Assembly (NCBI GenBank): GCA_037444725.1
Contig: JBBILW010000001.1
Location: 5,056 to 69,055, forward strand
DNA: 64,000 nt
Reading direction: 5' to 3'
Source: Candidatus Jorgensenbacteria bacterium
GTDB taxonomy: Bacteria; Patescibacteriota; Minisyncoccia; UBA6257; GWB1-50-10
Shown: piece by piece, positions 23,649 through 52,445 of the stretch
How positions within the stretch are numbered: position 1 is the stretch's first letter
How the letters are laid out: every line of letters starts with the position of its first letter
Program-made: the position numbers and the translations under genes
The notes under the pieces: generated by a model
The model's database searches: none
Seen by the model: only the letters and a program-made list of their open reading frames with translations
What the model was told of the DNA's origin: nothing

Positions 23649-23665
23649 GGTATAATAGAATACAC

Positions 23666-24088
23666 ATGATGTTTCGCTTACTCGCTGGTATTACTCTTGC
23701 CCTCGTCCTCTTCGTCGCCGTTGCTCCGCATGCGCTTGCGGCAAGTATTTGGACGGGAACCTCGTGCGTGGGCACTAGCGGAGGCCCCGACAAGCCGTGC
23801 TCCTTCTGTGACGCGCTTATTGTAGGAAGAAATATTATTACGTTTCTTACCGAGATTGCCGTGTCTATCACCACGCTCATGATAGTAGTCGGCGCAATAC
23901 AATTGGTGATTGCGGGCGGCGACCCCGGAAAAATCTCTGACGCAAAAAGAACGATGGGGCGCGGTCTCACCGGACTTCTCGTCGTAATGTCCGCATGGAC
24001 ACTTATGAACGCGCTTCTCATATTCATCGCACGCGGCAGCGCCTCCGATCCTTCAGGTTGGAAGTGGAATGAGATACAATGTCAGTAA
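23666..24088 (+). CDS. VirB2/TrbC-like T4SS pilin paralogue 1
   Basis: Signal peptide followed by two hydrophobic helices separated by a short loop (GGDPGKISDAKRTM). Confidence 0.45.
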   Translation: MMFRLLAGITLALVLFVAVAPHALAASIWTGTSCVGTSGGPDKPCSFCDALIVGRNIITFLTEIAVSITTLMIVVGAIQLVIAGGDPGKISDAKRTMGRGLTGLLVVMSAWTLMNALLIFIARGSASDPSGWKWNEIQCQ

Positions 24089-24423
24089 CCATTATGAAAA
24101 CGTTCTCTAAGGCACTTTTTCTCACGCTCGTCCTTACCGCCGCGGCAGCACACGCGCAAACATCCGTAGCGCTCCCCAATCCGCTCGGGGGCGTAAGCAC
24201 AATCGGCGACCTCCTCAATAAAATTATCGACGCGCTTATTCTTTTCGCATCGCCCGTAGTAGTAGTCATCGTCATGTATGCGGGATATTTGTTTCTTTCC
24301 GCGCGCGACGAACCGGAAAAGATTACCCAGGCCAGAAACACCATTCTCTATGCGATGCTCGGGTATGGTATAATACTAATCGCAAAGGGAATCGGGCTTA
24401 TTATTCAAAGCTTCTTTTCCTAG
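24079..24423 (+). CDS. VirB2/TrbC-like T4SS pilin paralogue 2
   Basis: Same architecture as paralogue 1. The start overlaps the preceding gene by 10 nt. Confidence 0.45.
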   Translation: MSVTIMKTFSKALFLTLVLTAAAAHAQTSVALPNPLGGVSTIGDLLNKIIDALILFASPVVVVIVMYAGYLFLSARDEPEKITQARNTILYAMLGYGIILIAKGIGLIIQSFFS

Positions 24424-24470
24424 AAAAGGTCGAGTTGTACATTGCAGACCATTCAAACTTATTACTGAAC

Positions 24471-24818
24471 ATGAAAACACTTGTAAAATACGCATCATTT
24501 GCAGCAGCAATCGCTCCCGTTCTCGCATTCGCGCAGGCAGCACCTGGCGACGTGACCGGAGGAACACAGGGACGCATCACATCACTTACCGGAGTCTGGA
24601 CTATTGTGCAGACGGCAGTTAATTGGCTCGTCGCCATTTTCTTCCTCTATGCAACGATTCAGTTCCTTTTGGCAGGCTGGGAGTATCTTAGCTCCAAGGG
24701 TGATGAATCGAAGGTGACGGAAGTGAGGAATCGCCTTCTCTATGGAGTCATCGGCGTCGCGGTAGGACTTCTTGCATTCTCAGTCCCCGCTATCGTGAGG
24801 ACATTCGTGGGTGCATAA
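24471..24818 (+). CDS. VirB2/TrbC-like T4SS pilin paralogue 3
   Basis: Same architecture again. Start trimmed to MKTLVKYASF. Confidence 0.45.
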   Translation: MKTLVKYASFAAAIAPVLAFAQAAPGDVTGGTQGRITSLTGVWTIVQTAVNWLVAIFFLYATIQFLLAGWEYLSSKGDESKVTEVRNRLLYGVIGVAVGLLAFSVPAIVRTFVGA

Positions 24819-36735: not shown

Positions 36736-38457
36736 ATGAACTTCCGCATTCATTCGCTTATCGCATCGTCGCTCTTTGTCACCGTGCTCACCACGAGTAT
36801 TTTTGCATACTATCCAGTGAAAGAAGTGCACGCTCAAGCCGGTACGTCAGAAGTCCTGGGAGCCTGCGGCGTGAATGCCGCACTCGATGCATTGACCGCA
36901 GTCGCGGGAGAAGCATTAAGTTTTTTAAGCACATCGGTTCCCACCACAAACCGTCCGCAACAACTTACGACAATTAAGTATGGTATTCAGCAATGTCTTA
37001 TGGCGATATTAAACCTCACCATCAAAGTCATGCTCGCGAAATTAAAAAAGCGGCTTTTGGACAGACTTACCGATGACACCATTTCCTGGATTAATGGCGA
37101 TGGGGGAAAGCCCAAATTCGTTACCAACTTCGGCGACGTGCTCAAGGAAAGCGCCGATGCTGCGGTTGGCGACACGCTCCGTGCATCGGGTATGGGTAAG
37201 CTCTGCTCTGACAAATTATCACTCCAAGTACAGGTATCATTACGAAAACAAAAGAAATTTTCCGAAGGTATAACCTGCACTCTTACGGGAGCGGCAAAAA
37301 ACGTTTCAGCATTTGCCGATAACTTTAACAATGGCAGCTGGATAGGGTATGGACAGCTTCTCGAGCCCTCAAATAACCGCTGGGGACTGCAGCTCCTTGC
37401 CATGGATGCGCTTGATACCAAAAAATCGCAGCTCAATGAGGCTACGAAGTTAAAAACCCAGGCAAGCACGGGCTTTACACCGACCGAGTTCTGTAAGGCG
37501 TGGACGCTTACCGGCGTACACACAACGGATGGTATCGGCAAGGTTACAGAAATCGCGCGCGTATCAGGAGACGTGTTTAATGGCGGACTCCGCGCACCGG
37601 AAAATCCTCCAAGTCCCACCGAGCGACCCGGAAACGCCGATTATTATCCGCCTGATTTCCCACAAAACTATACTGACCTTGCTTATGTTTGCGTTTCGGG
37701 AGACCGCGTTGTTTCAACGCCTGCGACGACAATCTCCGGCGCGACCGACAAGGCGGTTACGAGCGATTGGAATACCATCGCCAACATGGACGATCTCACT
37801 CCCTACATATCTGCAATATTCGATGCCGCGGTTAACCGAGTGAAGAAAGCTGGCGTGAAGGGTTTGTTGTCCGCCAAAAACGACCTCTTCAGCGACAGCA
37901 GCAAGACCGGCTATTCAGCCGGCGCGGGAGGGAGCGCAACTGATCAGACCGTTATCGAGTTAAAAGCTTCGTACGCTGCCGCGATGGCTGAAGCATCGAG
38001 TACTAGCGCACTTCTTAAGGCTGCGAACGACCAAATCACAACCGCGCTTAATCAATTGAACGCGCTTGGCGCCTGCCAGGCCTCCGTACTCGTTGCGCTA
38101 AATCCTATGGGAACGGTTTTTGATTGTCCTGCCACCGGTACAAAACTCACCACAGTTTCCAACTCATACGCATCGCTCAACACATACGCTTCAAATCTCG
38201 CCGATGCAAAAAAATCACTTTCACAAACCACCTCCCAGGTGAACGCCGCAACGAGTACCATGAGCATTACCACCCTTGCGACTCTTTCCTCGCTCGTGGC
38301 TGACGCAAGAGGAAAAATAGCTTCTATAGCAATCGGCGTTCAAAAGATTATTGACGCAACCACCGCAGACGCAACGCTTATAGCAAACGAACTCACCACC
38401 TGCTCGAATGCCGCAAAATTCCCCGGCACCGCATACAGCTGTCCTGTCTGGCCCTAA
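36736..38457 (+). CDS. large secreted hypothetical protein (573 aa)
   Basis: Signal anchor with a Thr/Ser/Ala-rich composition and no recognisable domain. Confidence 0.45.
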   Translation: MNFRIHSLIASSLFVTVLTTSIFAYYPVKEVHAQAGTSEVLGACGVNAALDALTAVAGEALSFLSTSVPTTNRPQQLTTIKYGIQQCLMAILNLTIKVMLAKLKKRLLDRLTDDTISWINGDGGKPKFVTNFGDVLKESADAAVGDTLRASGMGKLCSDKLSLQVQVSLRKQKKFSEGITCTLTGAAKNVSAFADNFNNGSWIGYGQLLEPSNNRWGLQLLAMDALDTKKSQLNEATKLKTQASTGFTPTEFCKAWTLTGVHTTDGIGKVTEIARVSGDVFNGGLRAPENPPSPTERPGNADYYPPDFPQNYTDLAYVCVSGDRVVSTPATTISGATDKAVTSDWNTIANMDDLTPYISAIFDAAVNRVKKAGVKGLLSAKNDLFSDSSKTGYSAGAGGSATDQTVIELKASYAAAMAEASSTSALLKAANDQITTALNQLNALGACQASVLVALNPMGTVFDCPATGTKLTTVSNSYASLNTYASNLADAKKSLSQTTSQVNAATSTMSITTLATLSSLVADARGKIASIAIGVQKIIDATTADATLIANELTTCSNAAKFPGTAYSCPVWP

Positions 38458-38460
38458 TTC

Positions 38461-39969
38461 ATGAAGTATCGCCCCAAATATTTATTCCTTGGACTAGTCA
38501 TCGCGGGAAGCGTTGCGCTGCTTACGCCTCATTTGGCGCACGCGGGCATTATGGATGACACGGCAATAAAAGTTGGCGTGGCGATGTTTAGTGTGGTCGC
38601 CTACATCATCAACACGATAGTCGGTTTCTTGTTCGTTGCTGCCGCATGGCTCGTCGGCATCGCGATGAGCATCAACGATACCGTCGCAAGCTCAACCAAT
38701 TCCATTGTAACCATCGGATGGGGGATATCACGTGATATTGCAAACCTCGGTTTCGTGCTTGCGATGGTCGTTATCGCATTTGCCACCATCATCAATTATG
38801 AACCATACGGCGCACGCAAACTTCTTGTGAAACTCATCACCGCGGCTATTCTCGTAAATTTCAGCTTGACGATAGGCGGCGTCCTTATTGATTTTTCAAA
38901 CGTCCTCACCCACTTCTTTCTCAGCCGAATCAACGTGACCCCTATCGAACTCGCGAGTAAGCTTGCGCAAGCGCTCGGGCCTCAGAAATTCATACTGGGC
39001 GACACGACCGATCCGCTTCCGCCCGATCCGAAGAACCAGCCGAATGTTCAGGAGGCGATTGGTTGGGGAGTACTGCTCAACATAAGCGGCCTTATATTTT
39101 CGATGGCATTCATTCTCATCTCCACCATCGTGCTGCTCACCTTTGCCGTCATGCTTCTTGTGCGTTTCGTAACACTTACGATTCTTCTTGCGTCAGCGCC
39201 GCTCTCCTGGCTCTTCAGCGTCATTCCGCAACTGAATAAGATGAACGATCTCTGGTGGAATAAATTTACGCAATGGACGTTCTTTGCGCCCGCGATGACA
39301 TTCTTTGTTTATCTCGCGCTTGCGGGTCTCGATGCTCTGTCGATACAATCCACTCCGGATACATTCTTCAGCGACCCTGGACTCGCCACCATTATGGCGA
39401 CGGGCATGAGGGGTGTATTGCTCTGCGGCACACTTGTTGGTGGATTAATGGCCGCAAATAAAATGGGTATTACAGGCGCGGCCGCGGGAATGGGCGCGGC
39501 AAAAGGCTTGTGGAGCGGCACTAAGGGATATGTGGGCGAGCGTGCAACCATGCTTCGCCAGCGCCTTGCGGCGGCGGGCATGCAAATCGATAAAAGCGGC
39601 GTGGCAACGACGGGCGCGGGGCGTGTCGCCGCAGCACTTGGCAGGGGTCTCTATCAGGTACCTCTTGTGGGAACAGGACTCGCGCGAAGGGCCGAGCGCG
39701 TGCGGGACGCGATTGGAAGAGACGCAGCAGCGCACATCGAGAATCGAGGGGTTGTGCGCACCGGTATAATGGGCTCACTCTTCCGCGGCGCTGCTGAGGG
39801 TGCGGGCGTTGTCGGCAAGAAAAAGGCAAGAAAACCTGAGGACATGACAAAAGAAGAACTGCTTGAAGAGCGGGAAACGCTTAAAACTGAAAAAGAAGCG
39901 GCCGAAAAAAGAGGGAAGGCGGCTGAATCCGCAAATATTCCGACGGGTGGTCAAACGCCGTCGGTTTAA
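38461..39969 (+). CDS. polytopic membrane protein, VirB6/TrbL-like
   Basis: At least six predicted TM helices and a Gly/Ala-rich cytoplasmic tail. The topology matches T4SS inner-membrane VirB6 proteins. Confidence 0.4.
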   Translation: MKYRPKYLFLGLVIAGSVALLTPHLAHAGIMDDTAIKVGVAMFSVVAYIINTIVGFLFVAAAWLVGIAMSINDTVASSTNSIVTIGWGISRDIANLGFVLAMVVIAFATIINYEPYGARKLLVKLITAAILVNFSLTIGGVLIDFSNVLTHFFLSRINVTPIELASKLAQALGPQKFILGDTTDPLPPDPKNQPNVQEAIGWGVLLNISGLIFSMAFILISTIVLLTFAVMLLVRFVTLTILLASAPLSWLFSVIPQLNKMNDLWWNKFTQWTFFAPAMTFFVYLALAGLDALSIQSTPDTFFSDPGLATIMATGMRGVLLCGTLVGGLMAANKMGITGAAAGMGAAKGLWSGTKGYVGERATMLRQRLAAAGMQIDKSGVATTGAGRVAAALGRGLYQVPLVGTGLARRAERVRDAIGRDAAAHIENRGVVRTGIMGSLFRGAAEGAGVVGKKKARKPEDMTKEELLEERETLKTEKEAAEKRGKAAESANIPTGGQTPSV

Positions 39970-40026
39970 AAAACCGAACTCTACGGCTAAGAATAGTGGG
40001 TCTGCCTAATACATATCAAAAACCGC

Positions 40027-41397
40027 ATGGAAAGTTTTAAGAATCCGTTCGACGCGCGCATTAAAGCAATAGACGACGTTCTTGAGAAACGATTCGGAGA
40101 AGCAAAAACCGCAAGCGATTGGCAAAAGCGCGTAGAGGCGCTTGAAGAAGAGCAGAAAAAAACCAAAGACGCTGGTTATGATTTTTCGTACTACAAATCA
40201 GCAATCGCGCAAGCAAGAAAAAAGAAAGTTGAGACTATGGACGACGGCACACTTGAGGAGCAGCTCAAGAAAATTAAGGAGTTCGAATCGCTTCGTGAAG
40301 AAGAGGATAAAATCCTCCGCGAAAAAATAGAAGCGGAAACCGACGAGAAGAAAAAGGAGGGATTAAAAAAGGACAGAAATAAGGCGCTCGCGTATTATGA
40401 AAAGAAAATAAACGAGATTGAAGAAAAGATAAAACCGAAAAATGAGGAGGAGTTCATCAAAAAAATCTCGGACATAGAAGAGAGGAGGAGTGAAAAACTT
40501 CAACGATTGGGAGTAAACAAAGAAGGGAAGACCATCGCAGATGTTACTTATTTCGATTCACAGCTCGCCACAGCGCAACGCGAGCTCGATAAACTAATCA
40601 CCGCAAAAACCGAGAGGCCCGTTCAGTACGTTTTGGAAGCGGGTCTTAAGAAAATCCGCACGCAAAGGGATATAGAAATCGCCTCTCACGGCACGAGCAG
40701 TTTAAGCGACATCCTTAATGACGCTACAAAAAAATTTACCGTATTTGTTTCCGATTGGCGGAAATTTGATTCGCAAAAACTGAAACAAGCACGGCAATGG
40801 GAGGCGCGGCGAGCATCGCTCGACAAACTTGAACGAGATTTCGGGCCCGCCATAGAAGAAGTCAAAAAAATCCCCGCGTTCGCGTCTGAAGCGCAACAGA
40901 TTGAGGATGAAGTGCGCGCGATTATTAAAGAACAAAAAGAACTTGTGGATGATGAAACAAATAAGACGGATGGCGCGCAAAAATCCAAACCTGAGGCGTC
41001 ACAATCGATAGACGATCTTCTGAAGGTGATGGCGATTGCGCAAGAAGGCGAGCGAGTTAAAAAAGAACGTGAGACGTTGCAGCGGGAAAAGCCGATTCAA
41101 TTCCTTGTAGAAGATTTGATTAACCAGCTTCAGAAACAGCGTGATACTGAAACTCTTATAGATGCGCTGTATCAATTCGAAAGTTCTTGGCAAAAGATTG
41201 ACGAACGCAAGCCGGAAACAGAGGCGGAGTGGGCGCTTCGCCGCGATGCATTGCGGGCACTTAAAATGGAACTCCTCAATGCAAAGAAGAAATTGTCTGA
41301 TATGAAAATCGTTATCGATTATAGCGCAATCGACAACGAGATTGCGGATGCGGACGATTTTTTAGCTGCCGCGGGTAAAAAGGATCAGCAGTCCTAG
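40027..41397 (+). CDS. Lys/Glu-rich coiled-coil hypothetical protein
   Basis: Pervasive EK-rich heptad-like composition and no TM helix. Confidence 0.45.
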   Translation: MESFKNPFDARIKAIDDVLEKRFGEAKTASDWQKRVEALEEEQKKTKDAGYDFSYYKSAIAQARKKKVETMDDGTLEEQLKKIKEFESLREEEDKILREKIEAETDEKKKEGLKKDRNKALAYYEKKINEIEEKIKPKNEEEFIKKISDIEERRSEKLQRLGVNKEGKTIADVTYFDSQLATAQRELDKLITAKTERPVQYVLEAGLKKIRTQRDIEIASHGTSSLSDILNDATKKFTVFVSDWRKFDSQKLKQARQWEARRASLDKLERDFGPAIEEVKKIPAFASEAQQIEDEVRAIIKEQKELVDDETNKTDGAQKSKPEASQSIDDLLKVMAIAQEGERVKKERETLQREKPIQFLVEDLINQLQKQRDTETLIDALYQFESSWQKIDERKPETEAEWALRRDALRALKMELLNAKKKLSDMKIVIDYSAIDNEIADADDFLAAAGKKDQQS

Positions 41398-41439
41398 CCA
41401 ATAGGAGGTACAATTGAAAACGACATCGGTATATAATGT

Positions 41440-42618
41440 TTGTATACGAGAGATATGGATTATTCACTCATCACTGAACAAGCGATTAACAACCGATACA
41501 ATACCGTCCCGGAAGAACTTCGCGATGCGGTGGATTCCGAACAAACGCAAAAGCTGATATCCAACATCAGCAAAACGCAGTATTTGAATGAGGAAAAATC
41601 GCTTATCTTGGAGCAACTCGTTGCACTTGTGCTCCTCGGCTTTATGTCGACAAACGAACTGGTGCACGAGCTTCGCGAACAGCTTTTCTTAAACCATGAG
41701 CACGCCCGCGTACTGGCAAATGAGCTCAACAACAGAATTTTCGAGTCACTTAAAGAAGAGCTCGCTGCCGCATACAATCCTCCCGCGGCTACCATTGAAC
41801 AGGAAGCGCCTCAGCCTCCCTCGGCGGTAAGAGCACCAGCCGAAGAACCTCTTCCTATTACGTCGTTTAAGATCGCTCCGGAAGCGGCGCCTGCGCCGGC
41901 ATCCACGCCCGCGCCCATTTCTCCCGTTTCCATCAACGCAAGCGAAGGCGGGCCCGCAGTTTTGCAGAAACAGACGCCCTTTTTCGAACGGGCGGAATTA
42001 AAACCGACCGGTAAGAAACCGTCGCTTTCATTCAACACGTTCGCATCATCATCCGAGACCACCGAACCGCCTCGCGTTCAGGCAAAAATCGAAACTCCTC
42101 TCGGTGTGCAATGGGCAGCGAAAAAAGAGGAGCCTAAAAAAATGGGGAAGGTGGTGCACTATAGCGAATTCGGCTCATCAGGAGGCGGAGGCCGCCCCGC
42201 ACCCGTTTCGGAGTTTATTAATCTTGAGGCGCTCAAAAAGGTTTCGCTCGACACAAAGCCCGCCCCCGCGGCACCGCAGGTAGCCCCAGCCGCACCTCAA
42301 TCCGCAAGCCCCGCTCCGCAGCAACCTCCGGCAGCTCCTTCTGCGCCGATTCTTAACCCCGACGTGCCGACGCTCATCACGCCGGTCGCAACGATAAAGC
42401 CAGCGCCGATAGAAGAGAAAAAGAGTCCTCTCATGTGGGGTATAAATCCCATTTCTGTAAGCGTTCCAACTGCCACAACAGCTGATTCGGGACCGAAGCG
42501 TATGGATGCAATAGTGCCTAATGCCGGCTCTCCAGCAGCTCAAAAACCAGCTCCCGTACCGATTTCGAGCGATACGAAACAACCCGCACTTGAAGGAAAT
42601 GTTATTCACCTTCGCTAA
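41440..42618 (+). CDS. hypothetical protein with a Pro/Ala-rich central region
   Basis: The track start is a TTG. An ATG at 41455 is an alternative start. Confidence 0.4.
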   Translation: MYTRDMDYSLITEQAINNRYNTVPEELRDAVDSEQTQKLISNISKTQYLNEEKSLILEQLVALVLLGFMSTNELVHELREQLFLNHEHARVLANELNNRIFESLKEELAAAYNPPAATIEQEAPQPPSAVRAPAEEPLPITSFKIAPEAAPAPASTPAPISPVSINASEGGPAVLQKQTPFFERAELKPTGKKPSLSFNTFASSSETTEPPRVQAKIETPLGVQWAAKKEEPKKMGKVVHYSEFGSSGGGGRPAPVSEFINLEALKKVSLDTKPAPAAPQVAPAAPQSASPAPQQPPAAPSAPILNPDVPTLITPVATIKPAPIEEKKSPLMWGINPISVSVPTATTADSGPKRMDAIVPNAGSPAAQKPAPVPISSDTKQPALEGNVIHLR

Positions 42619-43115
42619 TGGCACAATTTCAGATACCACAATTTATTGAAGAGGAGGCAAAAATTGTCGGCCCTCTTACCATTAAACAATTCGGCTATCT
42701 CGCAGTCGCGGGGGGCCTTTCGTTTGGGCTCTTCTATTTATTTACGTTCTTTCTCTGGCTTATAGTGTCCGCCATTCTTATCGGCGCGGCGGCCGCCCTT
42801 GCATTCGTGAAGATTAACGGACAAGGTCTTCCTGAAATTCTTCTCGCGGGCTTTTCATTTTTATGGAAACCGCGCCGTTATGTTTGGCAGCGGGCAATGC
42901 AGCAGACCACGCTCGACATTTCCGATCTTGAAAAAATACAAACGATACGCAAAAGCATCAGTATTTCGGACAAGCTTAAGAACATCGCTGTAGGAGTGAC
43001 TACGGGAAAGATATTCCGCGGCGAGGGCGAAACACCAAGTCAGCCCAAAGAGCGTTATCAGGTTGTTTCTTACCTTACCGGGGAGCAGAAGGTAGCAAAG
43101 CGCATCGATTACTAG
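42618..43115 (+). CDS. PrgI/VirB3-like small T4SS membrane protein
   Basis: N-terminal IPQFIEEEAKIVGPLTIKQFGYL followed by two TM helices. It sits immediately upstream of the VirB4 ATPase, as in Gram-positive T4SS operons. Confidence 0.5.
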   Translation: MAQFQIPQFIEEEAKIVGPLTIKQFGYLAVAGGLSFGLFYLFTFFLWLIVSAILIGAAAALAFVKINGQGLPEILLAGFSFLWKPRRYVWQRAMQQTTLDISDLEKIQTIRKSISISDKLKNIAVGVTTGKIFRGEGETPSQPKERYQVVSYLTGEQKVAKRIDY

Positions 43116-43151
43116 CGCATAAACCGTTGAAATACGGTACAATATACGTAT

Positions 43152-43802
43152 ATGGCAGAAGTCAGCCTTCCTACACAACAATTCGTTGATATAAAAGAGG
43201 TGCGCAATGGCGTCGTCTACCTGAAACAGGGAGGCATGCGCAAGATTCTTATCGTGAGCGGCGTTAACTTCGACCTCAAATCCGAGGCTGAGCAGACCGC
43301 CATTCTCGGCACGTTCCAAAACTTCATCAATACCATCGATTTTCCTGTTCAATTTTTCATTCACTCGCGCAAAGTAAACATCGAGACCTATCTTGAGAAG
43401 ATGAGCGAGCGACAATCAAAGGAAGAAAACGAGCTCTTAAAAATACAGATTGGAGAATATATTGAATTTATCCGCTCATTTGTCGAACAGAACGCTATTA
43501 TCAATAAAACTTTTTTTGCAATTGTCCCTTACGACGGCGGAACGGTAGTGGCGGGCGGGGGAGTCGACAATATTCTTAATATGTTCAACAAGCCCCAGTC
43601 TGCCGACGTGCAAAAACAGCAATCGGAACATGCCGCACTCGAACAACTTGAGTTGCGCGTTACCGAAATTTCAAACGGAATTGAACAAATCGGCCTCCGT
43701 GTAACTCCTTTGAGCGACGCCGAGATAGTCGAGCTTTTCTATAACCTTTACAATCCGCAGCTTCAGGAAAAGAAGGGTCTTGAGATTACCAAGCAACAAT
43801 GA
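43152..43802 (+). CDS. VirB4/TrbE-family conjugative ATPase, N-terminal domain ORF
   Basis: ILIVSGVNFDLKSEAEQTAILGTFQNFINTIDFPVQFFIHSRKVNIETYLEKM resembles VirB4 N-terminal domains. The ORF ends in ATGA, overlapping the start of the next ORF. Confidence 0.6.
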   Translation: MAEVSLPTQQFVDIKEVRNGVVYLKQGGMRKILIVSGVNFDLKSEAEQTAILGTFQNFINTIDFPVQFFIHSRKVNIETYLEKMSERQSKEENELLKIQIGEYIEFIRSFVEQNAIINKTFFAIVPYDGGTVVAGGGVDNILNMFNKPQSADVQKQQSEHAALEQLELRVTEISNGIEQIGLRVTPLSDAEIVELFYNLYNPQLQEKKGLEITKQQ

Positions 43803-45550
43803 AAATAAAAATCCCGCAACTCTATAAGCCGTCGCCTCAAGATCTCCCGAACATTATTGCGCCGTCGGGACTTGAGATTAATGCGAACTACATTAAAATC
43901 GGCGATTATTACGCGAAAACGCTTTTTATTTTCACCTATCCTCGTTTTGTGATGACGGGATGGTTTTCGCCCATTATCAATATGGCGGAAATGATGGATG
44001 TTTCCATCTTCATGCATCCCATGGACACCTCGCTCGCGCTTCAAAATCTCCGTAAAAAAGTTGCGCAGGTAGAATCGGAGCTTAATGAAAAACAGGCGAA
44101 AGGAATGGTGCGCGACCCCATGCTTGAGACCGCATACCAAGACATAGAAACGCTGCGCGACGCGCTTCTTCAGGCACGCGAGAAGCTTTTTAAAGTCGGT
44201 GTATATATTACTGTGTACGCACAAACACTTGAGGCGCTCACCAAAATCGAGGGCCAGGTTTCAAATGTTTTGGAAGGGAAGCTTGTGTATATAAAACCGT
44301 CTCTTTTCAAACAACTCGAGGGGTTTGACTCCACACTTCCTCTTGGCGAAGACAAGCTGCAGATTCACACGCCGCTCAACTCCGGCTCCGCTTCGTCGCT
44401 CTTCCCGTTTGTATCACCTGATTTGAGCTCTGAAAAGGGAATTCTCTTCGGCATCAATATGAGCAATAACAGCCTCATTATTTTTGACCGTTTCTCGCTT
44501 GAAAACGCGAACCAGGTTATTTTCGCAAAGTCTGGCGCCGGTAAATCATATACCACCAAACTCCAGATTATCCGCTCACTCATGACGGGCACCAATGTCA
44601 TTGTTATCGACCCCGAAAACGAGTACCAAAACCTTGCCAATGCGGTCGGCGGAAGTTATTTCAAGATTTCACTTACCTCACCGAGCCACATTAATCCGTT
44701 CGACATCCCCATCATTCCGGAAGGGGAGGAGCCCGGAGACGTCTTCAAATCGCACGTGTTGAACCTCACGGGTCTTTTGAAACTCATGCTCGGCACTATT
44801 ACGCCCGAGGAAGACGCGATGCTCGATAAAGTTATCACCGACACGTACGCCTCACGTGACATTACGGCTGAGAATTTCGGTGTCACGAAAGAAATCAACC
44901 CGCCGCTCCTCGAAGACCTTCAGATTATTTTGCAAAACACCGAGGGCGGCCGCGCTCTTGCTCAGCGTCTTGAAAAATTCACTCACGGTTCGTATGCCGG
45001 CTTCACCAATGCGCCGACGAACGTTGATATCAAGAACCGCCTTATCGTGTTCTCAATCCGCGACCTGGAGGAAGAATTGCGCCCCATCGCGATGTACATC
45101 GTGTTGAACTTCGTGTGGAACCTCGTACGCTCCGAGCTCAAACAGCGCCTTCTCTTTGTCGACGAGGCGTGGATTATGATGAAGTTTAAAGACAGCGCCT
45201 CCTTCCTCTTCGGCCTTGTAAAACGCGCGCGCAAATACTTCCTCGGCATAACGACCATCACCCAGGACGTGGAAGATTTCTTGAAGTCGGAATACGGACG
45301 ACCGATTGTCACGAACTCTGCAATGCAGATTCTCATGAAACAGTCGCCGAGTTCTATTGAGGCAGTTGCGAAAACATTCGATCTCACCGATGGCGAACGC
45401 GTGCTTCTTCTGGAAGCCGGGGTGGGCGAGGGGTTGTTCTTTGCGGGTGCAAAGCACGTAGCTATTAAAATAATCGCGTCATACACGGAAGATCAGATTA
45501 TTACTACAAACCCCGAGCAAATGCTGGAGACTAAAGGATTGCAAAAATAA
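43799..45550 (+). CDS. VirB4/TrbE/CagE-family conjugative ATPase, C-terminal ATPase ORF
   Basis: Walker A (FAKSGAGKSYTTK), Walker B (LLFVDEAWIM) and a YAKTLFI...YPR region. Confidence 0.8.
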   Translation: MKIKIPQLYKPSPQDLPNIIAPSGLEINANYIKIGDYYAKTLFIFTYPRFVMTGWFSPIINMAEMMDVSIFMHPMDTSLALQNLRKKVAQVESELNEKQAKGMVRDPMLETAYQDIETLRDALLQAREKLFKVGVYITVYAQTLEALTKIEGQVSNVLEGKLVYIKPSLFKQLEGFDSTLPLGEDKLQIHTPLNSGSASSLFPFVSPDLSSEKGILFGINMSNNSLIIFDRFSLENANQVIFAKSGAGKSYTTKLQIIRSLMTGTNVIVIDPENEYQNLANAVGGSYFKISLTSPSHINPFDIPIIPEGEEPGDVFKSHVLNLTGLLKLMLGTITPEEDAMLDKVITDTYASRDITAENFGVTKEINPPLLEDLQIILQNTEGGRALAQRLEKFTHGSYAGFTNAPTNVDIKNRLIVFSIRDLEEELRPIAMYIVLNFVWNLVRSELKQRLLFVDEAWIMMKFKDSASFLFGLVKRARKYFLGITTITQDVEDFLKSEYGRPIVTNSAMQILMKQSPSSIEAVAKTFDLTDGERVLLLEAGVGEGLFFAGAKHVAIKIIASYTEDQIITTNPEQMLETKGLQK

Positions 45551-45554
45551 TGCC

Positions 45555-45905
45555 ATGGAAGACGAGAAGCCATTTTCTCTTGTTGAAATAATCTTCGGCA
45601 CTCTTATTGCGCTTATCATCGACGTTGTGGCCGCGATTGCGAGCGCGTTCAGTCTCGGTATTCTCGGTTTTTTTGTCCACGCGGGAACATGGCTCGTCTT
45701 CACGCTCTGGTTTACAATTAAAGGGTTGGGCGTGACCGCTTCGCTCGCGAGAAGATATTTTCTTCCCATGGCAATTCAGGCAATTCCTTTTCTCCCCACA
45801 ACAACCGTAACATTCCTCATGGTCACGTATATGGAAAATAATCCCGATAAATTCGCTGCAGTTACGTCAGTGGCACGCGTAGCGGGTACTGTTGCAAAGC
45901 TATAA
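45555..45905 (+). CDS. small multi-TM membrane protein
   Basis: About three hydrophobic helices. Position within the cluster. Confidence 0.4.
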   Translation: MEDEKPFSLVEIIFGTLIALIIDVVAAIASAFSLGILGFFVHAGTWLVFTLWFTIKGLGVTASLARRYFLPMAIQAIPFLPTTTVTFLMVTYMENNPDKFAAVTSVARVAGTVAKL

Positions 45906-45907
45906 CC

Positions 45908-46585
45908 ATGCGCCAACTCACCACAATTCTTGCGTTCGCCTTCGTGCTTTTTATCGCGCTACACTCTTTCGCGTACGCAGCAGGGGCGCCGGCGCTCATC
46001 ATCACGTGGAAAGCCGATAATTATTACCCCATTAACTTCGAGGGCAGGGCGCTTCCTTCGCCGACAACGCCCGTAACCGTTTCTGTAGAGGGCGCTGTTG
46101 ATGGAAAACTTATCGATCTCTCAAAGGCGGACATTTCCTGGTACAAAGACGGTGACAGGTTTGATGTAGGCTCCGGACTTAAAGAAACTTCATTTAATGC
46201 CGAGGACACGGATGCGGGCTCGCACTTTATCCGCGTAGTTGCGGTTATTAATGGAGTTTCCGCGGAGCAAACGATTCGCATACCCGTCGTAAGCCCCGTC
46301 GCAGTGCTCGAGGTGCCATATCCGAATAAAGTCGTTCCTGCGGGAACTGTGGCGAATCTCGTAAGCGTGCCTTACTTTTTTAATGCGTCATCGATAACCG
46401 ACTTCATCTTCAGCTGGCAGATTGCCGACCTCAAACAAAACACCGGAAGCGATAACGTACTCGCGATAAATGTCGGCACGCCTTATACTGATGACCAACG
46501 GACAGTGACGGTTAACTCGTACATTCAAAATCGCAATAATCCGTTTGAAATCGTGAAGCTTCTCACCGATATTTTTGTGAAATAA
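45908..46585 (+). CDS. secreted hypothetical protein
   Basis: Signal peptide with a beta-rich composition. Confidence 0.4.
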   Translation: MRQLTTILAFAFVLFIALHSFAYAAGAPALIITWKADNYYPINFEGRALPSPTTPVTVSVEGAVDGKLIDLSKADISWYKDGDRFDVGSGLKETSFNAEDTDAGSHFIRVVAVINGVSAEQTIRIPVVSPVAVLEVPYPNKVVPAGTVANLVSVPYFFNASSITDFIFSWQIADLKQNTGSDNVLAINVGTPYTDDQRTVTVNSYIQNRNNPFEIVKLLTDIFVK

Positions 46586-46594
46586 TCCATCTCA

Positions 46595-47800
46595 ATGACC
46601 AGACGACAAATTACCATCCTCCTCATACTTTTCCTCATGGTCGTGGGTGTTATCGTGTACGCAATTTTCTTCCGTGGAACAACGACTCCCGCGGAACAAG
46701 CAGCGCCCTCCGAGCAGCAAACCACAGGAGAGCCGCAAGGCGTGACGGGCACCACAGGAACAACTCCTTCTGGCGCCACACCTGAGGCGACAACAACCAC
46801 CACGACCGAATTTCCTCCGGCGGCCACCGCGGGAGATACGTATGTGCTCAAAAAACTTTCCGACGGTCCTGTTGTAGGCTATTGGGCGGCAAAAAATTCA
46901 AATGACGTCTATTATCTCACCAACGACGGATATGTGATGTCGGCAAAAGAGGGGCCTGATGTAGATCTCTTAAAACAGGAAGTGAAGGGGGTAATCAAGC
47001 TTGAGGGATCTCCCTCAGGAAACAAGGCGCTTGTCGCATTCGGAAATGCAGCCTCCCCGCAATGGGCCGTGTTCGACACACAAGACAAGGCATGGAGACC
47101 GCTTCCCTCAACTATTATTGATGCAACATGGGGCATAAGCGATGACGGCATTGTGGCAACCACGAAGTCTATGGGGAATAACATTGCGCTCACCTATATC
47201 ACTATCTCCAAAACGCCGTTTGATATTAAAACTATCGTGAAGGATTTTCGCTTCAACAGCGTAACTCTCGCCATAAAATCTATTGACGAGCTTTACATAA
47301 TGGAACGCCCGTCCGCATTGGCGCTATCGCATGTCTGGCTTTTCAATCTTAAGTCGAACGCCCTCACGCAGGTGCTTAATCCGGCAAACGGCCTCACGCT
47401 TGTTCCGGGAAGCAATAAAGATATTTTCTTCCGTTTTAGCTCGCCGAATAATTTTGCGATACTCAACCGCTCGCTTGGCATGACGCAGCCATTTCCTTAT
47501 GTCACATTACCTCAAAAGTGCGACGGGGTAAGCACGGCCGTTTACTGCTTTGTTCCTAAAAATACTTCTATTTTTTCGGCCAGCAATTCAATGCCCGATG
47601 ATTATCTTATGAAAAAAACGTACACGAGCGATGATTTTTACCGCCTTGACCTCACGACAGGAGGGGATAGGCTTATAGTAACGGGCGACTCAGCAAACGC
47701 TCCTGCACTTGATGCGCAAAATGTGCGGACGAGGGGCACATCAACGTATTTCGTTAACCGTTACGATAACTATGTCTATGCGATCCAGAAGGCACAATAA
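46595..47800 (+). CDS. membrane-anchored secreted hypothetical protein with a Thr-rich linker
   Basis: N-terminal TM helix and a TGTTGTTPSGATPEATTTTTT linker. Confidence 0.4.
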   Translation: MTRRQITILLILFLMVVGVIVYAIFFRGTTTPAEQAAPSEQQTTGEPQGVTGTTGTTPSGATPEATTTTTTEFPPAATAGDTYVLKKLSDGPVVGYWAAKNSNDVYYLTNDGYVMSAKEGPDVDLLKQEVKGVIKLEGSPSGNKALVAFGNAASPQWAVFDTQDKAWRPLPSTIIDATWGISDDGIVATTKSMGNNIALTYITISKTPFDIKTIVKDFRFNSVTLAIKSIDELYIMERPSALALSHVWLFNLKSNALTQVLNPANGLTLVPGSNKDIFFRFSSPNNFAILNRSLGMTQPFPYVTLPQKCDGVSTAVYCFVPKNTSIFSASNSMPDDYLMKKTYTSDDFYRLDLTTGGDRLIVTGDSANAPALDAQNVRTRGTSTYFVNRYDNYVYAIQKAQ

Positions 47801-47801: not shown

Positions 47802-49196
47802 ATGAATAAAAAAACGCTGTTTGCTCTCGTGGTTGTCAGCCTCATCATCGTGCCTTCTATTATTCTCGCGGCTAGCGCTCCCGCGCCCCTGCGCTTCTCG
47901 CCACCTTACATAAGCGGCGTACCGGGGTTTGCCGGCACTTCACAGGCGCCCATCATGTCGGGTGGAGCAACCTCGATTCAGGATTATCTTATTCGCATTT
48001 ATCAGTTTGCTATCGGTATCTCAGGCGTAACCGCGGTCGGCATGATTGTGTGGGGCGCTATCAATATGTCGATTTATACAGGACGTATCGACCGATACGA
48101 GGAAGGTAAAACAATAATTTACCAGGCACTTTTTGGTCTTGCGCTTCTCTTTGGTTCATACCTCTTACTCAACACCATCAACCCGCAAATCACCACACTC
48201 ACCGAACCAACCGGAGGCGGAAAACAACTCGATGCAGTTACCACAACCACAGTAGCAAACCCAGGATCGAGCGCGTCGGGCTCATCGATATGCGGCGGCG
48301 GGCAACTTGCGAGCATACCGCAACTTCCCAACCTTTCATCCGCCACGCCGAGCGCAACTGGCTGCGAATATAGGCGCCTCCAACTCACGCAAGACCTCAC
48401 ATACTCCGCAAAGGGTATGTATAACCAAGACCTTAACTTGAAAAAAGGTGCCATTATATGGCTCTGGCCGTATTATGTTGGAGACACAGCATCAGCACGT
48501 TGTACTATCTACGCCTATAAAGACGCTCCCATTGAAGTGCCTAATTACGCTCCAGATGGCTCCGTTCAAGGACCTCCGACTCTTTCTTATCCCGCGACCC
48601 AACAAGTGTCGCTCAAGCTTGATGGTATGAGTAAATGCGGAAACGACCCCGCGACCCAGCAACCAGGCGCAACCTGCACCGATTGCGCAGCAACCGGAGG
48701 TTCGGTTGATGTAAGCGGTATTAACACAAGCAATCTTGATGGCAACGGATCATGCTCGCCATCAATAAACACCTCACCCGCGGGCATTATTTCCGATATA
48801 AAAAATGGCAATCTTCCCTACATTTGTTACCCGGGCTGCAACTCGACAACTGCGCCTTGCACGAGAAGCGGAGCAACACTTTCCGCAAATACCGTAAACA
48901 CGATTATCAATCTCCAAAATTCCGGAATGTCCTTTACAGTAACAAGTCTCACGGGCGGTTCACACAGCGCGGTAGGTGATGTGCACTATCAAGGAAAGGC
49001 ACTTGATGTGGTGTTTCAGCCGCAAGATGCCACCACGTGGAATAAGGCATTGAAATTACTACAAGGCATGAGCACTGTTTCACAGGCGGCATGTGAATTC
49101 ATTGGAGGTAGTCCGCCCAACTTTGATCAGAGTTCGTGTAATGGCTTATTCGCATCAGGCACCACAAATCGGCACATCCACGTCACCACGAAATAA
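47802..49196 (+). CDS. pilin-fold (VirB2-like) N-terminal domain fused to an extracellular domain of about 320 aa that contains many Cys
   Basis: Signal peptide followed by two hydrophobic helices (IQDYLIRIYQFAIGISGVTAVGMIVWGAI...ALFGLALLFGSYLLLNTINP), then a long C-terminal domain with many Cys. Start trimmed to MNKKT. Confidence 0.45.
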   Translation: MNKKTLFALVVVSLIIVPSIILAASAPAPLRFSPPYISGVPGFAGTSQAPIMSGGATSIQDYLIRIYQFAIGISGVTAVGMIVWGAINMSIYTGRIDRYEEGKTIIYQALFGLALLFGSYLLLNTINPQITTLTEPTGGGKQLDAVTTTTVANPGSSASGSSICGGGQLASIPQLPNLSSATPSATGCEYRRLQLTQDLTYSAKGMYNQDLNLKKGAIIWLWPYYVGDTASARCTIYAYKDAPIEVPNYAPDGSVQGPPTLSYPATQQVSLKLDGMSKCGNDPATQQPGATCTDCAATGGSVDVSGINTSNLDGNGSCSPSINTSPAGIISDIKNGNLPYICYPGCNSTTAPCTRSGATLSANTVNTIINLQNSGMSFTVTSLTGGSHSAVGDVHYQGKALDVVFQPQDATTWNKALKLLQGMSTVSQAACEFIGGSPPNFDQSSCNGLFASGTTNRHIHVTTK

Positions 49197-49226
49197 AAAA
49201 CACCCCTTGCGGGGTGTTTTTTTAAT
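49194..49226. terminator. bidirectional rho-independent terminator ending the envelope cluster and the jag gene
   Basis: acacccc-ttgc-ggggtgt flanked by an A-run and a T-run. Confidence 0.6.
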
Positions 49227-49664
49227 TTATGAAACGAATTTGATAACGACGTGACGGTCTTTTCCGGCTCCCGCGCTCTCGGTCTTGAGCTCCGGGTGCG
49301 TGGTGAGCTCCATGTGCACCAAGCGGCGCTCATAGCCGTTCATTGCCGGCAACGCCACTTCCTGCTTCGTAACCGAGGCTTTCTTTGCGGCGGCCTTCGC
49401 GAGCTCGGTAATAAGCCTCTCGCGCTCCTTGCGGTAATAGTTCAAATCCACCACGTGGGGGATAAGACCTTCTTTTTTGAGCATTAAGTTCACAATATGG
49501 TCGAGTGCGGGGAGAATGTTGATGACATTGTCCGAGACAAACCGGTCGTCGATGAGAATAATCACCTTCCTTCGTTCCTCGTCGAGCGCAACCTCCGCCT
49601 CGGGGAAGCCCATAAGGGTTATAAGCTGTTTTGTCTTCTCTACGATTGGATTTGCGGGGTTCAT
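49227..49664 (-). CDS. jag: Jag/KhpB-like R3H-domain RNA-binding protein
   Basis: C-terminal R3H domain (NGYERRLVHMELT). Conserved position downstream of yidC. Confidence 0.75.
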   Translation of the reverse strand: MNPANPIVEKTKQLITLMGFPEAEVALDEERRKVIILIDDRFVSDNVINILPALDHIVNLMLKKEGLIPHVVDLNYYRKERERLITELAKAAAKKASVTKQEVALPAMNGYERRLVHMELTTHPELKTESAGAGKDRHVVIKFVS

Positions 49665-49682
49665 AGTTCAACGAACAGTATA

Positions 49683-50399
49683 CTACTCATCTTTGAATTT
49701 TGGCAATTGTTTGTTGATGTAGAGCTGCTGCACCACCGAAAAGAGGCTTGAGACGAGCCAATAGAGACCAAGTGCCGAGGGGAGATTCACGAGCACGAAG
49801 AAGGTAAGCGCCGGACCCATAATCATCATCGTGTTCGTCATGGACGCCATAGGATTGTCCTTATCCGCGGATTTTGCCTTCATACCACCCATCATAAGCT
49901 TGCCCTGCAGGTACTGCATAGCAGCCGCCAAGACCGGCATAATATATCCTTTTGTTTTCAAATCAAGAATTCCAAGAAGCGTCGTGGTGGTAAACGCGGC
50001 TCCCGAGAGCTCGGTTGAGAGCACGCGGAAGAGGATAATGAACACCGGAAGCTGGAGGAGCAGCAATAAAATACCCGAAAAAGGATTGAGTTTGTACTTC
50101 TTATAGAGGTCGAGCATCTCTTTTGCTTGGCGCTCCTTATCATCCTTATGATCGAGCTGAATCTTCTTTATGTGCGGCTGGAGGTGCTGAGTAAGCGCCT
50201 GGTCTTTTGAGCTCTTATAAAAGATGGGGAAGAGGATGACGCGCACCGCAACGGTGAGTAAAATAACCGCGATTCCAAGGTCGTGGAACGCGATGGTGTT
50301 ATAGATATAGATGAGCAATTCCAATATCGGCTGATAGAGAAATGTATTAAAAAACCCGGACATGTGCTCTATTGTACGGGGTTTCCCACTATTCCGCAA
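49683..50399 (-). CDS. yidC: membrane protein insertase YidC (short form)
   Basis: FLYQPILELLIYIY...LLTVAVRVILFPI and five TM helices. Confidence 0.85.
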   Translation of the reverse strand: MRNSGKPRTIEHMSGFFNTFLYQPILELLIYIYNTIAFHDLGIAVILLTVAVRVILFPIFYKSSKDQALTQHLQPHIKKIQLDHKDDKERQAKEMLDLYKKYKLNPFSGILLLLLQLPVFIILFRVLSTELSGAAFTTTTLLGILDLKTKGYIMPVLAAAMQYLQGKLMMGGMKAKSADKDNPMASMTNTMMIMGPALTFFVLVNLPSALGLYWLVSSLFSVVQQLYINKQLPKFKDE

Positions 50400-50408
50400 T
50401 TCATGTTT

Positions 50409-50669
50409 TTAGCCCAGTTTTGCCTGAATTTCTTCCTGCAGCCCATGAAAACCCGCCTTCACCGCTCCCGCGCGGGCTATTATCGTCACTTCGTACGGTA
50501 ATTTCTCAAGAAGCGGGCGCACTATGGAGGAAATGCGACGTTTTACAAGGTTTCTCTCTACCGCTTTTTTAGAAACCGCCTTCCCGACCACAACAATAAG
50601 CGGCTTCTTCTGGAAGCCGTGTGGGTTTGTTCTTATTGTGAGTGTGCGCATGGGTGCTATGAGCGCCAT
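50409..50669 (-). CDS. rnpA: RNase P protein component
   Basis: KAVERNLVKRRI (the RNR-like motif). Conserved position between rpmH and yidC. Confidence 0.75.
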   Translation of the reverse strand: MALIAPMRTLTIRTNPHGFQKKPLIVVVGKAVSKKAVERNLVKRRISSIVRPLLEKLPYEVTIIARAGAVKAGFHGLQEEIQAKLG

Positions 50670-50683
50670 AATACTCGTTTTAT

Positions 50684-50818
50684 CTAGAGTGCGATGCGCT
50701 TGCGGCCCTTTTGTCTGCGGCGAGCCATTGCTGCGCGTCCTCCCGGCGTTCTGCTGCGCTTTAAAAAGCCGTGCGTGTTCCTGCGCTTCTTCTTTTTTGG
50801 TTGGTACGTGAAACTCAT
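50684..50818 (-). CDS. rpmH: 50S ribosomal protein L34
   Basis: [44 protein letters not shown]. Start trimmed. Confidence 0.85.
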
Positions 50819-50866
50819 AGTAATGAATCTTGGTGTTACATTAACACACCGTACGAAATAAAGCAA

Positions 50867-51062
50867 TTTTTGTCCGCCGTCATTCCGTAAAACGACTTAT
50901 CAACAGGTAATACACAATTAGAGCACATTCGCGAATTTCCAACAACGTTGAAAGTTTTATTATTACGTTTATGATTGGGTGATAGGTAAGGAGAAAAGTT
51001 TTCTGATTTGATTTTTTTCAGTCTTAATAAATAATTTTTTAAAATCGCGCCACACACGAAAT
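50867..51062. promoter_or_regulatory. AT-rich rpmH-dnaA divergent promoter region, possibly part of the origin
   Basis: About 200 bp of AT-rich non-coding DNA between divergent rpmH and dnaA. Confidence 0.4.
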
Positions 51063-52445
51063 ATGGAACATCAGGAACTTTGGAAAACAGTGCTTGGTGA
51101 GATAGAACTCCAGATTTCGCGACCAAATTTCCTTACGTGGTTCAAAAACAGCCAGTTAGTGGAGAAAAACGAGAAGGAGGGGGTGGCGCTTGTGGCATTA
51201 CCGAACAATTTCGCGAAGGAGTGGGTAAAAAATCGTTATCATAAGATTATTTTAGGTTCGTTACGCAACATCGACGGCTCAATTAAGTACGTAAACTACG
51301 TTGTGGTGAGTCACAACACTCCGCTTAAGCCCTCAAAGGTGGAGCGGAAGCAAAAAGCGCCGGAATTAACCGACGAAAAATCAAATCTTCCCATCACCGA
51401 TCTTCGTGTTGACTCAAAAACGAATCTCAATCCGAAATATATCTTTGATTCCTTCGTTGTCGGCTCCTCAAACGAGCTTGCATGCGCCGCCATCAACGCG
51501 GTTATCGACAATGTCGGGAAAAAATACAACCCGCTCTTTATTTATGGAGGAGTAGGTTTGGGAAAAACACACCTTCTCCAGGCAGCAGGGAATGCGGTGC
51601 ATCAAAAATATGAAGGGAAGGTGCGTGTGTTGTATGTAACCTCGGAAAAATTCATCAATGACGTTGTGTGGGCACTCCGCAACAAGCGCGCGGACGACAT
51701 GAAGAAAAAATACCGCGATGTGGATATGCTTATCATCGACGATATCCAATTCATCGGCGGCAAAGCGGCAACAGAGCTCGAATTCTTTTATACATTTAAC
51801 GCGCTCTACGAAAACAACAAGCAGATTATTATTTCATCCGATCGTCCGCCCGCAGCAATCCCCACACTCGAAGAAAGACTTCGTTCACGCTTTGAGGGGG
51901 GAATGATTGCGGATGTCGCGTATCCGGATTATGAAATGCGTTTGGCAATTTTAAAAACCAAAGCGCAGTCTCATAACGCAAATATCGACGAAAAAACCCT
52001 TGAATATATCGCGACGAAAGTCCAGAAGAACATCAGGGAAGTGGAGGGGGTGCTCAATAAGGTGTTGTTTTACCAACAGTATAAAAACAACCAAATAGAC
52101 CAGAAGAAACTTGATGAAATCATCAGTGAAACATCGCAGGTTTCACCGAAAAACATCACTCCCGCCGATATTATTAAGACCGTTGCTGAGTTTTATGAGA
52201 TATCCCAGCAGGAACTCACCGATAGAGGAAGGAAGCAGGAAATAGTGGAACCTCGGCAGGTAGTAATGTACCTCTTGAGAGAAATGTTGAAACTTTCGTA
52301 TCCGAATATCGGCGAACGCCTTGGAAAGCGGGATCATACTACCGTTATCCACGCATACGAGAAAATCTCAAAAGAGGTGCAATCGAATTCCGCGTTCAAC
52401 CAGAAAATACTCCTTATCAAAGAACGACTGTTTAAAAATTCTTAA
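51063..52445 (+). CDS. dnaA: chromosomal replication initiator DnaA
   Basis: AAA+ Walker A (GGVGLGKTHL) and a C-terminal DNA-binding domain. Confidence 0.95.
   Translation: MEHQELWKTVLGEIELQISRPNFLTWFKNSQLVEKNEKEGVALVALPNNFAKEWVKNRYHKIILGSLRNIDGSIKYVNYVVVSHNTPLKPSKVERKQKAPELTDEKSNLPITDLRVDSKTNLNPKYIFDSFVVGSSNELACAAINAVIDNVGKKYNPLFIYGGVGLGKTHLLQAAGNAVHQKYEGKVRVLYVTSEKFINDVVWALRNKRADDMKKKYRDVDMLIIDDIQFIGGKAATELEFFYTFNALYENNKQIIISSDRPPAAIPTLEERLRSRFEGGMIADVAYPDYEMRLAILKTKAQSHNANIDEKTLEYIATKVQKNIREVEGVLNKVLFYQQYKNNQIDQKKLDEIISETSQVSPKNITPADIIKTVAEFYEISQQELTDRGRKQEIVEPRQVVMYLLREMLKLSYPNIGERLGKRDHTTVIHAYEKISKEVQSNSAFNQKILLIKERLFKNS

Follow-up and report, generated by a model that had tools for sequence, protein, structure and literature searches.

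Domain architecture of the fusion protein

We analyzed a 64,000-nt stretch of DNA (the window) from Candidatus Jorgensenbacteria bacterium (GenBank assembly GCA_037444725.1, contig JBBILW010000001.1, positions 5,056 to 69,055 of the forward strand) and focused on the last gene of a cluster that resembles type IV secretion system (T4SS) loci. This gene (47802..49196 of the window, + strand) encodes a 464-aa protein, hereafter the fusion protein, in which a signal peptide and a pilin-like helical hairpin are followed by a long ectodomain ending in a domain similar to the zinc peptidases of the LAS (Hedgehog/DD-peptidase) group. The open reading frame (ORF) starts with ATG at 47802, 1 base past the stop codon of the upstream 401-aa gene, and ends with a stop codon at 49196. 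A longer, TTG-initiated frame (47709) is mechanically possible; the orthologues open with the same MNKK as the 47802 start. A word-index search yielded 16 homologues of the whole protein (E from 0 to 4e-18), and an exhaustive HMMER scan with its last 300 residues yielded 115 cluster representatives (50% identity) at E≤1e-3. Since there are 16 homologues and the gene order is kept in five other loci, we conclude that the ORF is a real, conserved coding gene.

An AlphaFold2 model was built on an 11-sequence alignment and had a mean predicted local distance difference test (pLDDT) score of 66. Residues 1-24 (47802..47873, + strand) were recognized as a signal peptide, composed of MNKK, a hydrophobic core and ILAAS with a putative cleavage site; hydropathy reached 2.9 over residues 6-24 and the model placed a helix at residues 3-24. 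The segment PPYISGVPGF (residues 33-43, 47898-47930), which separates the signal peptide from the first hairpin helix, is almost invariant among orthologues (P34, P35, G39) and might be a motif for processing or docking. The initial annotation of the gene, made from the sequence alone, had described a signal peptide, a pair of hydrophobic helices around a short polar loop (residues about 60-150) and then a long hydrophilic, Cys-rich domain. The order of these elements held, but the helices were delimited to residues 59-91 and 96-126, with the loop YTGRIDRYEEGKT between them. The hydrophilic remainder comprises 333 aa and holds all 12 Cys of the protein (positions 164-446), as well as the segment GGSHSAVGDVHYQGKALD (residues 385-402) that had been pointed out at the outset. 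The position of every Cys after the hairpin is consistent with an extracytoplasmic location of this part, as would be expected from the N-out/C-out topology of VirB2/TrbC pilins.

The N-terminal hairpin resembles T4SS pilins

The hairpin (residues 59-131; 47976..48194, + strand) was assigned to the VirB2/T4SS_pilin type by profile match, helices in the model and conservation. Residues 57-121 matched the Pfam family T4SS_pilin (PF18895) at E 9e-6 with 26.1 bits. Among 70 relatives that were chosen solely by their C-terminal domain, PF18895 was matched at E≤0.01 by 65, and four also matched TrbC/VirB2 (PF04956). The architecture typical of pilins, i.e., a signal peptide and two hydrophobic helices separated by a short polar loop, was visible in hydropathy, in the AlphaFold2 model and in the alignment, and the gene is encoded together with VirB4, VirB3 and VirB6. 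In these respects the protein is like the T4SS_pilin and VirB2/TrbC pilins of Patescibacteria, which combine a signal peptide, two hydrophobic helices and a short charged loop and are encoded with virB3, virB4 and virB6 genes. It differs from them in size (464 aa vs. about 110-140 aa), as it carries the additional 333-aa ectodomain. The hairpin was also the best-conserved part of the protein, with 27 invariant positions among 11 orthologues. It is 93% identical to the hairpins of the relatives P0002 and P0004, and identity between orthologues ranges from 59 to 95%, compared with the 25% that pilins encoded in arrays are reported to average. A profile of four N-terminal hairpins gave no pilin match in the PDB; the archaeal conjugation pilin 8dfu appeared in the Foldseek list of the whole model at E 4.8, a value that is unusable as evidence.

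The initial annotation had further stated that three small pilin paralogues in the window share this architecture, which we can confirm. The three VirB2-like genes form an array (23666..24818, + strand) about 12 kb upstream of the cluster; each product scored 34-35 bits with PF18895, above the cut-off, and the middle ORF additionally matched TrbC/VirB2 with 29.1 bits. When aligned with the fusion protein, all three showed the same arrangement of signal and hairpin at 16-21% identity. The array lies directly after a gene for a solute-binding protein (region 22362-24818).

The C-terminal domain has a LAS-type fold and zinc-ligand motifs

Residues 300-464 (48699..49193, + strand) were predicted as an alpha/beta domain with pLDDT of 75-92, in which a central antiparallel sheet is backed by helices, as in the DD-peptidase fold. 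In structure comparison the domain matched the C-terminal domain of VldE (score 7.7), Drosophila Hedgehog (7.5) and the Streptomyces zinc DD-carboxypeptidase 1lbu (6.9), followed by the phage T5 L-Ala-D-Glu peptidase (6.8), VanXYc (6.5), MepA (6.4), VanX (6.3) and Ply500 (6.2). Entries with large root-mean-square deviation that stood between these LAS matches were discarded as helical-hairpin noise. With A3, a profile built from 32 sequences of the domain, ShhN chains were found in the PDB at E values from 5e-7 to 1e-5, and two M15 peptidoglycan peptidases were matched weakly (E 0.07-0.09). Direct alignment of A3 with human ShhN by hhalign gave a probability of 95% and E 1.7e-8. Of the 70 relatives, seven matched HH_signal, one of which was scored in detail at 20.5 bits, below the cut-off of 22.1, and a single one matched Peptidase_M15_3, weakly.

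The family core TSLTGGxHSxxSxHYxGxAxDI aligns with Shh, and GGSHSAVGDVHYQGKALD is this motif. It contains the zinc-ligand pattern H-x6-D of the form H388...H395-Y-x-G-x-A-x-D402 (48963..49007, + strand), conserved in the 70 sequences, and it is followed near the C-terminus by H458-I-H460 (49173..49181, + strand), which corresponds to the LAS motif H-x-H. Across the relatives, H395, Y396, G398, D402, H458 and C353 are invariant, while H388, H460, S382, G386 and five further Cys are at least 90% conserved; the conserved Cys of the domain are at positions 318, 342, 346, 353, 431 and 446. A conserved acidic residue, E432, which forms a "CE" pair, aligns to E177 of Shh, the proposed catalytic base. 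Together, H-x6-D and H-x-H make up the zinc signature by which DD-peptidases and the LAS arrangement are defined (PMC6027127). Because the profile matches ShhN and these motifs (H395-x6-D402 and H458-x-H460) are nearly invariant, profile and model together identify residues 300-464 as a LAS/Hedgehog-DD-peptidase zinc-peptidase-like domain. It shares its fold and the H-x6-D ... H-x-H pattern with the LAS/MEROPS M15 peptidases (the S. albus DD-carboxypeptidase 1lbu, VanX/VanXY, the phage T5 enzyme, Ply500, VldE and MepA), yet it is missed by the M15 models of Pfam and NCBIfam. Unlike bacHh (Roelink, 2018; PMC6027127), which is more than 50% identical to ShhN and shares every Zn- and Ca-coordinating residue with it, the family shows about 26% identity over 50 columns, and WDEDG is replaced by TGG. 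It also differs from both Shh and bacHh in a loop of about 25 residues, with Cys on either side, that separates HIH from the CE strand, in its six conserved Cys, and in having a T4SS pilin hairpin as its N-terminal partner.

For this part of the protein the initial annotation had proposed a tip or adhesin domain. That proposal was not supported: the domain has a common enzyme fold unrelated to adhesion, with metal-binding and catalytic residues conserved throughout the family. Neither of the structural models gave a lectin or adhesin match for it, and no similarity of the protein to VirB5, PrgB or lectin and adhesin folds was found.

Two less conserved segments connect hairpin and LAS core. 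Residues 132-187 (48195..48362, + strand) form a low-complexity linker rich in Thr, Ser, Gly and Pro that is predicted to be disordered (pLDDT 25-43). Residues 188-290, with approximate limits (48363..48671, + strand), form a beta domain that is weakly SH3-like and has conserved C188, W220, P223, Y224, C234 and C279.

The gene closes a T4SS-like cluster near the replication origin

The remaining part of the cluster (36736..47800, + strand) was delimited with Pfam, NCBIfam and synteny. It starts with a 573-aa protein (36736-38457), followed by two VirB6/TrbL-like ORFs (38461-39969 and 40027-41397), a 392-aa protein (41440-42618), PrgI/VirB3 (42618-43115), a TraC-like VirB4 N-domain (43152-43802), VirB4 (43799-45550), and proteins of 116, 225 and 401 aa (45555-47800). 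No Pfam, NCBIfam or PDB sequence match was found for the 573-, 392-, 116-, 225- and 401-aa products. As core T4SS genes adjoin the fusion gene, and as its position is kept in five other loci, its membership of a secretion cluster, assumed by the initial annotation, is supported. In these loci (L004, L006, L007, L008, L010) the pilin-LAS gene lies two to three genes downstream of VirB4, even where the flanking housekeeping genes are different (L007, L008).

The statement that the gene is the last of its cluster was also borne out. The next feature is a bidirectional, intrinsic-terminator-like hairpin (49195..49222) whose 12-bp stem (AAAAAACACCCC/GGGGTGTTTTTT) is perfect and stands between an A-run and a T-run; beyond it lies the convergent jag (jag/R3H). 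Past this hairpin (about 49200-53750) the order is jag-yidC-rnpA-rpmH on the - strand, then dnaA-dnaN on the + strand. The cumulative GC skew has its minimum at about 50 kb, and the T4SS cluster abuts an origin-of-replication neighborhood; on its other side, a ksgA-type methyltransferase gene lies just upstream. A chromosomal, origin-proximal T4SS context has been reported for Patescibacteria (PMC12102498). Annotations of the relatives read "Patescibacteria group bacterium", in one case with the protein name "pilin", and Candidatus Wolfebacteria.

The ectodomain is a divergence island between closely related loci

We compared the locus with that of a close genome (L010, GCA_027346635.1; ectodomain segment 10400-11332). 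Results showed that the linker and the entire ectodomain form a divergence island (48215..49196, + strand) with DNA identity of 20-54%, vs. 75-90% in the flanks, recovering to 87-90% in jag. At the protein level, identity was 98% for VirB4, 97% for DnaA and Jag, 95% for YidC and DnaN, 91% for the TraC-like protein, 89% for PrgI, and 86, 83 and 72% for the 225-, 401- and 116-aa proteins, respectively. The fusion protein reached 51% over residues 1-335, and its LAS core went undetected by BLAST. Other variable products were the 573-aa protein (46%), the C-terminal part of VirB6 (44%) and the 392-aa protein (64%), which are likely other surface parts of the cluster; the 573- and 392-aa proteins diverge far more than the cytoplasmic core does. 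On a hairpin that is 93% identical, L010 carries a C-terminal domain of the P0004 type, in which TGG...H...D...C...C...HxH is kept in register. Aligned to A3 by hhalign, this domain gave a probability of 0.9% as a single sequence and 78% (E 2e-5) as a 5-sequence profile; judging from these alignments, it is probably a very divergent LAS domain of the same fold.

The nonsynonymous divergence (dN) from P0002, which is 76% identical, was 0.056 for the hairpin, 0.055 for the LAS core, 0.30 for the middle domain and 0.36 for the linker, the fastest-evolving segment. Linker and middle domain thus evolve five to six times faster than the hairpin and the LAS core. The dN of the hairpin, together with its 27 invariant residues and 93% identity, points to constraint beyond the need of a generic membrane anchor. 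Since synonymous sites were saturated (proportion of synonymous differences 0.6-0.9), dN/dS vs. P0002 is uninformative on positive selection and only the relative dN per domain is usable. Strain variability of the C-terminal domain had been suggested by the initial annotation as a sign of diversifying selection: the strong divergence of the ectodomain between genomes agrees with this expectation, while dN/dS gave no reading on selection itself. The divergence makes a role in contact or target recognition, beside catalysis, possible.

Relatives combine the hairpin with further enzyme domains

Domain partners other than those of the fusion protein were found in several relatives. P0086 consists of a hairpin, a LAS domain and an SLT lytic transglycosylase domain (E 1.3e-11), a two-enzyme wall-hydrolase layout like that of Gram-positive VirB1 analogues. 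Its locus (L011 3058-7266) lies after a solute-binding-protein gene and is followed by a gene for a 370-aa pilin-domain protein; as P0086 stands in the place of the small-pilin array in this order, enzyme-bearing "pilins" occur in array loci too. P0014 (L008 8330-10219) and P0021, P0033, P0055 and P0063 are proteins of about 600 aa in which a pilin hairpin is joined to two tandem LAS-like domains. The second LAS copy of the P0014-type proteins keeps H...HY.G.A.D and seems to be without the terminal H-x-H, and may be an inactive duplicate.

A candidate pilin-anchored peptidoglycan peptidase

Taken together, these sequence data make it fairly probable that the fusion protein is a pilin-anchored, T4SS-associated peptidoglycan peptidase. 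The protein would be Sec-exported and bitopic; after cleavage of the signal peptide, the hairpin would lie in the membrane with both ends outside, as in the VirB2/TrbC family, and would either be retained at the T4SS platform or assemble together with the small pilins. The flexible linker of about 55 residues would tether the two modules outside the cell, and the small beta module might bind the wall or the target. The putative metallopeptidase module, stabilized by disulfides and with H395, D402 and H460 as proposed zinc ligands and H458 and/or E432 as proposed catalytic base, would then hydrolyze peptide bonds of peptidoglycan stems or cross-links where the secretion machine is located. The invariance of the active-site residues argues for catalysis rather than mere binding.

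Such a role would be that of the VirB1-type hydrolases (PrgK of pCF10, TraG of pIP501, CwlT of ICEBs1), with a peptidase in the place of the glycosidase or CHAP domain. Like these proteins, the fusion protein is encoded in a T4SS cluster and has an N-terminal membrane anchor and a domain predicted to degrade peptidoglycan outside the cytoplasm. They carry SLT or lysozyme domains with CHAP or NlpC/P60 on a single transmembrane helix, whereas the present protein combines a LAS-type zinc-peptidase-like domain with a pilin-like hairpin. No lytic transglycosylase, lysozyme or CHAP/NlpC domain was found in it by Pfam, NCBIfam or structure comparison, so its likeness to the VirB1-type hydrolases would go no further than functional analogy, without homology. 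A recognizable VirB1 is lacking in most Patescibacteria that have VirB2-like pilins, and peptidase and lysozyme homologues in the T4SS of Southlakia may replace it (PMC12102498); by analogy, the fusion protein could be the VirB1 analogue reported missing in most members of the group. The closest known case is SEML1_0007 of Southlakia epibionticum (Wang et al., 2023; PMC10633639, Table S2), an essential protein whose gene adjoins virB4 and whose residues 951-1105 form a C-terminal Hedgehog/DD-peptidase domain. The two proteins are alike in having this type of domain within a T4SS cluster of Patescibacteria, a likeness drawn from the description in Table S2 rather than from sequence; SEML1_0007 is much longer (1113 aa) and no pilin module has been reported for it.

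Several points weigh against the peptidase reading. The PF18895 score of the hairpin is 0.5 bit under the 26.6-bit gathering score, and Foldseek of the whole model against the PDB returned nothing significant, with helical hairpins dominating the output. The protein taken alone gave no Pfam match for the C-terminal domain at E≤0.1, including M15 and HH_signal, and none in NCBIfam, PHROGs or PDB (phmmer), the link to Hedgehog and LAS being made only through the family profile A3. The acidic Ca-binding cluster of Shh and bacHh is absent from the family, with TSL--TGGSHS at that place of the hhalign alignment. Hedgehog-N itself was long held to be a ligand or pseudo-protease and its status as a peptidase is debated (PMC6027127), so the fold alone is no proof of catalysis. 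Catalysis is thus a prediction, and the wall that is cut could be the cell's own or that of the host.

On this last point two versions of the enzyme can be weighed. The protein could be a strictly self-directed VirB1 analogue, which opens the cell's own peptidoglycan for the T4SS channel or pilus and for which the hairpin merely parks the enzyme. The membrane-anchored hydrolases of Gram-positive T4SSs offer the model for this, the SLT-bearing relative P0086 and the location in a T4SS cluster agree with it, and so does the reported lack of VirB1 in most Patescibacteria with VirB2 (PMC12102498). Moreover, the organism encodes a class A penicillin-binding protein and hence makes peptidoglycan. 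However, an unchanged self-substrate would not predict that the ectodomain is the most divergent segment (20-54% at the DNA level) of a locus in which VirB4, DnaA and Jag are 97-98% identical as proteins, and we consider the strictly self-directed version possible but distinctly less probable than not. The divergence island suggests that the ectodomain faces something variable, such as the host surface, the host wall or predators, and not the own wall alone; for this reason we favor action on, or recognition of, a partner (host) wall over purely housekeeping autolysis, and the peptidase may act on the wall of the host.

A further-reaching version would have the hairpin place the protein in or at the end of the T4SS pilus. 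The zinc peptidase would be carried to the host wall, where a local cut would open a conduit for feeding or transfer, and strains that are nearly identical elsewhere would swap or diversify the ectodomain to suit the peptidoglycan chemotype or the surface of their different hosts. We regard this version as speculative and rather unlikely; if true, it would make the ectodomain a host-range determinant of epibiotic ultrasmall bacteria.

A different view was taken by the initial annotation, which proposed an adhesin or a minor or tip pilin. On that view the LAS fold would be a pseudo-enzyme that binds peptidoglycan or a ligand, as was long argued for Hedgehog-N, and would mediate cell-cell contact. 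The pilin-like N-terminus fits this model, hypervariability of an ectodomain between near-identical loci is typical of host-recognition proteins, the middle domain is weakly SH3-like, and the closest solved relative of the C-terminal domain is a signaling ligand. Also, no PrgB-like adhesins have been found in Patescibacteria (PMC12102498), which leaves the role of adhesin vacant. Yet in 70 diverse members the positions for zinc ligands and catalysis show little or no variation, and the low dN of the LAS core reflects strong purifying selection; one relative fuses the domain to an SLT enzyme, and no match to a fold or family of lectins or adhesins emerged. We therefore judge an adhesin to be improbable.

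LAS/M15 enzymes are common housekeeping peptidoglycan enzymes and the gene lies in an origin-proximal housekeeping region, but an ordinary wall peptidase (e.g., a DD- or LD-carboxypeptidase) that happens to sit beside T4SS genes with a generic two-helix anchor is very improbable, as the match of the anchor is specific to a T4SS pilin family, the conservation of the anchor (27 invariant residues) equals that of the catalytic core, the place after VirB4 is kept where flanking housekeeping genes differ (L007, L008), and the pilin module is present in 65 of 70 relatives picked by their C-terminal domain.

Full-text literature searches retrieved T4SS surveys and papers on Hedgehog/DD-peptidases, but no account of a fusion between a VirB2-like pilin and a Hedgehog/DD-peptidase domain. 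Both parts of the fusion are of already known kinds, and a Hedgehog/DD-peptidase domain in a T4SS cluster of the Candidate Phyla Radiation is on record in a supplementary table. In the only species in which this has been examined, the T4SS of Patescibacteria, a system of unknown function, proved essential to growth as an epibiont (PMC10633639, PMC12857230). The peptidase reading, if correct, makes the pilin-LAS fusion a concrete candidate for the missing wall-opening activity of these systems and would give a mechanism for breaching the wall, be it the cell's own or the host's, with the divergence island of the ectodomain as a candidate for what determines specificity. Within the Hedgehog/DD-peptidase superfamily, the domain forms a large bacterial branch that had not been classified before, with 115 clusters at 50% identity, almost all examined ones of which are pilin-fused.

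Other features of the cluster

Two of the core components are encoded in two parts. VirB4 is divided between a TraC-like N-terminal protein of 216 aa and an ATPase of 583 aa, the stop codon of the first gene overlapping the start codon of the second, and each of the five related loci keeps this split. In L010 the VirB6/TrbL_3-like gene is one ORF of 812 aa; here it is represented by ORFs of 502 and 456 aa lying 57 bp apart. The two-ORF state could reflect a genuine split, a frameshift, or an "extended VirB6" whose hydrophilic part diverges rapidly.

A hydrolase hidden in the 573-, 401- or 392-aa proteins was also considered, and none was found by PDB sequence search. Some 2 kb upstream of the cluster, the opposite strand carries a gene (33664-34620, - strand) for a protein with LysM and Peptidase_M23 domains, another wall peptidase of the LAS type.

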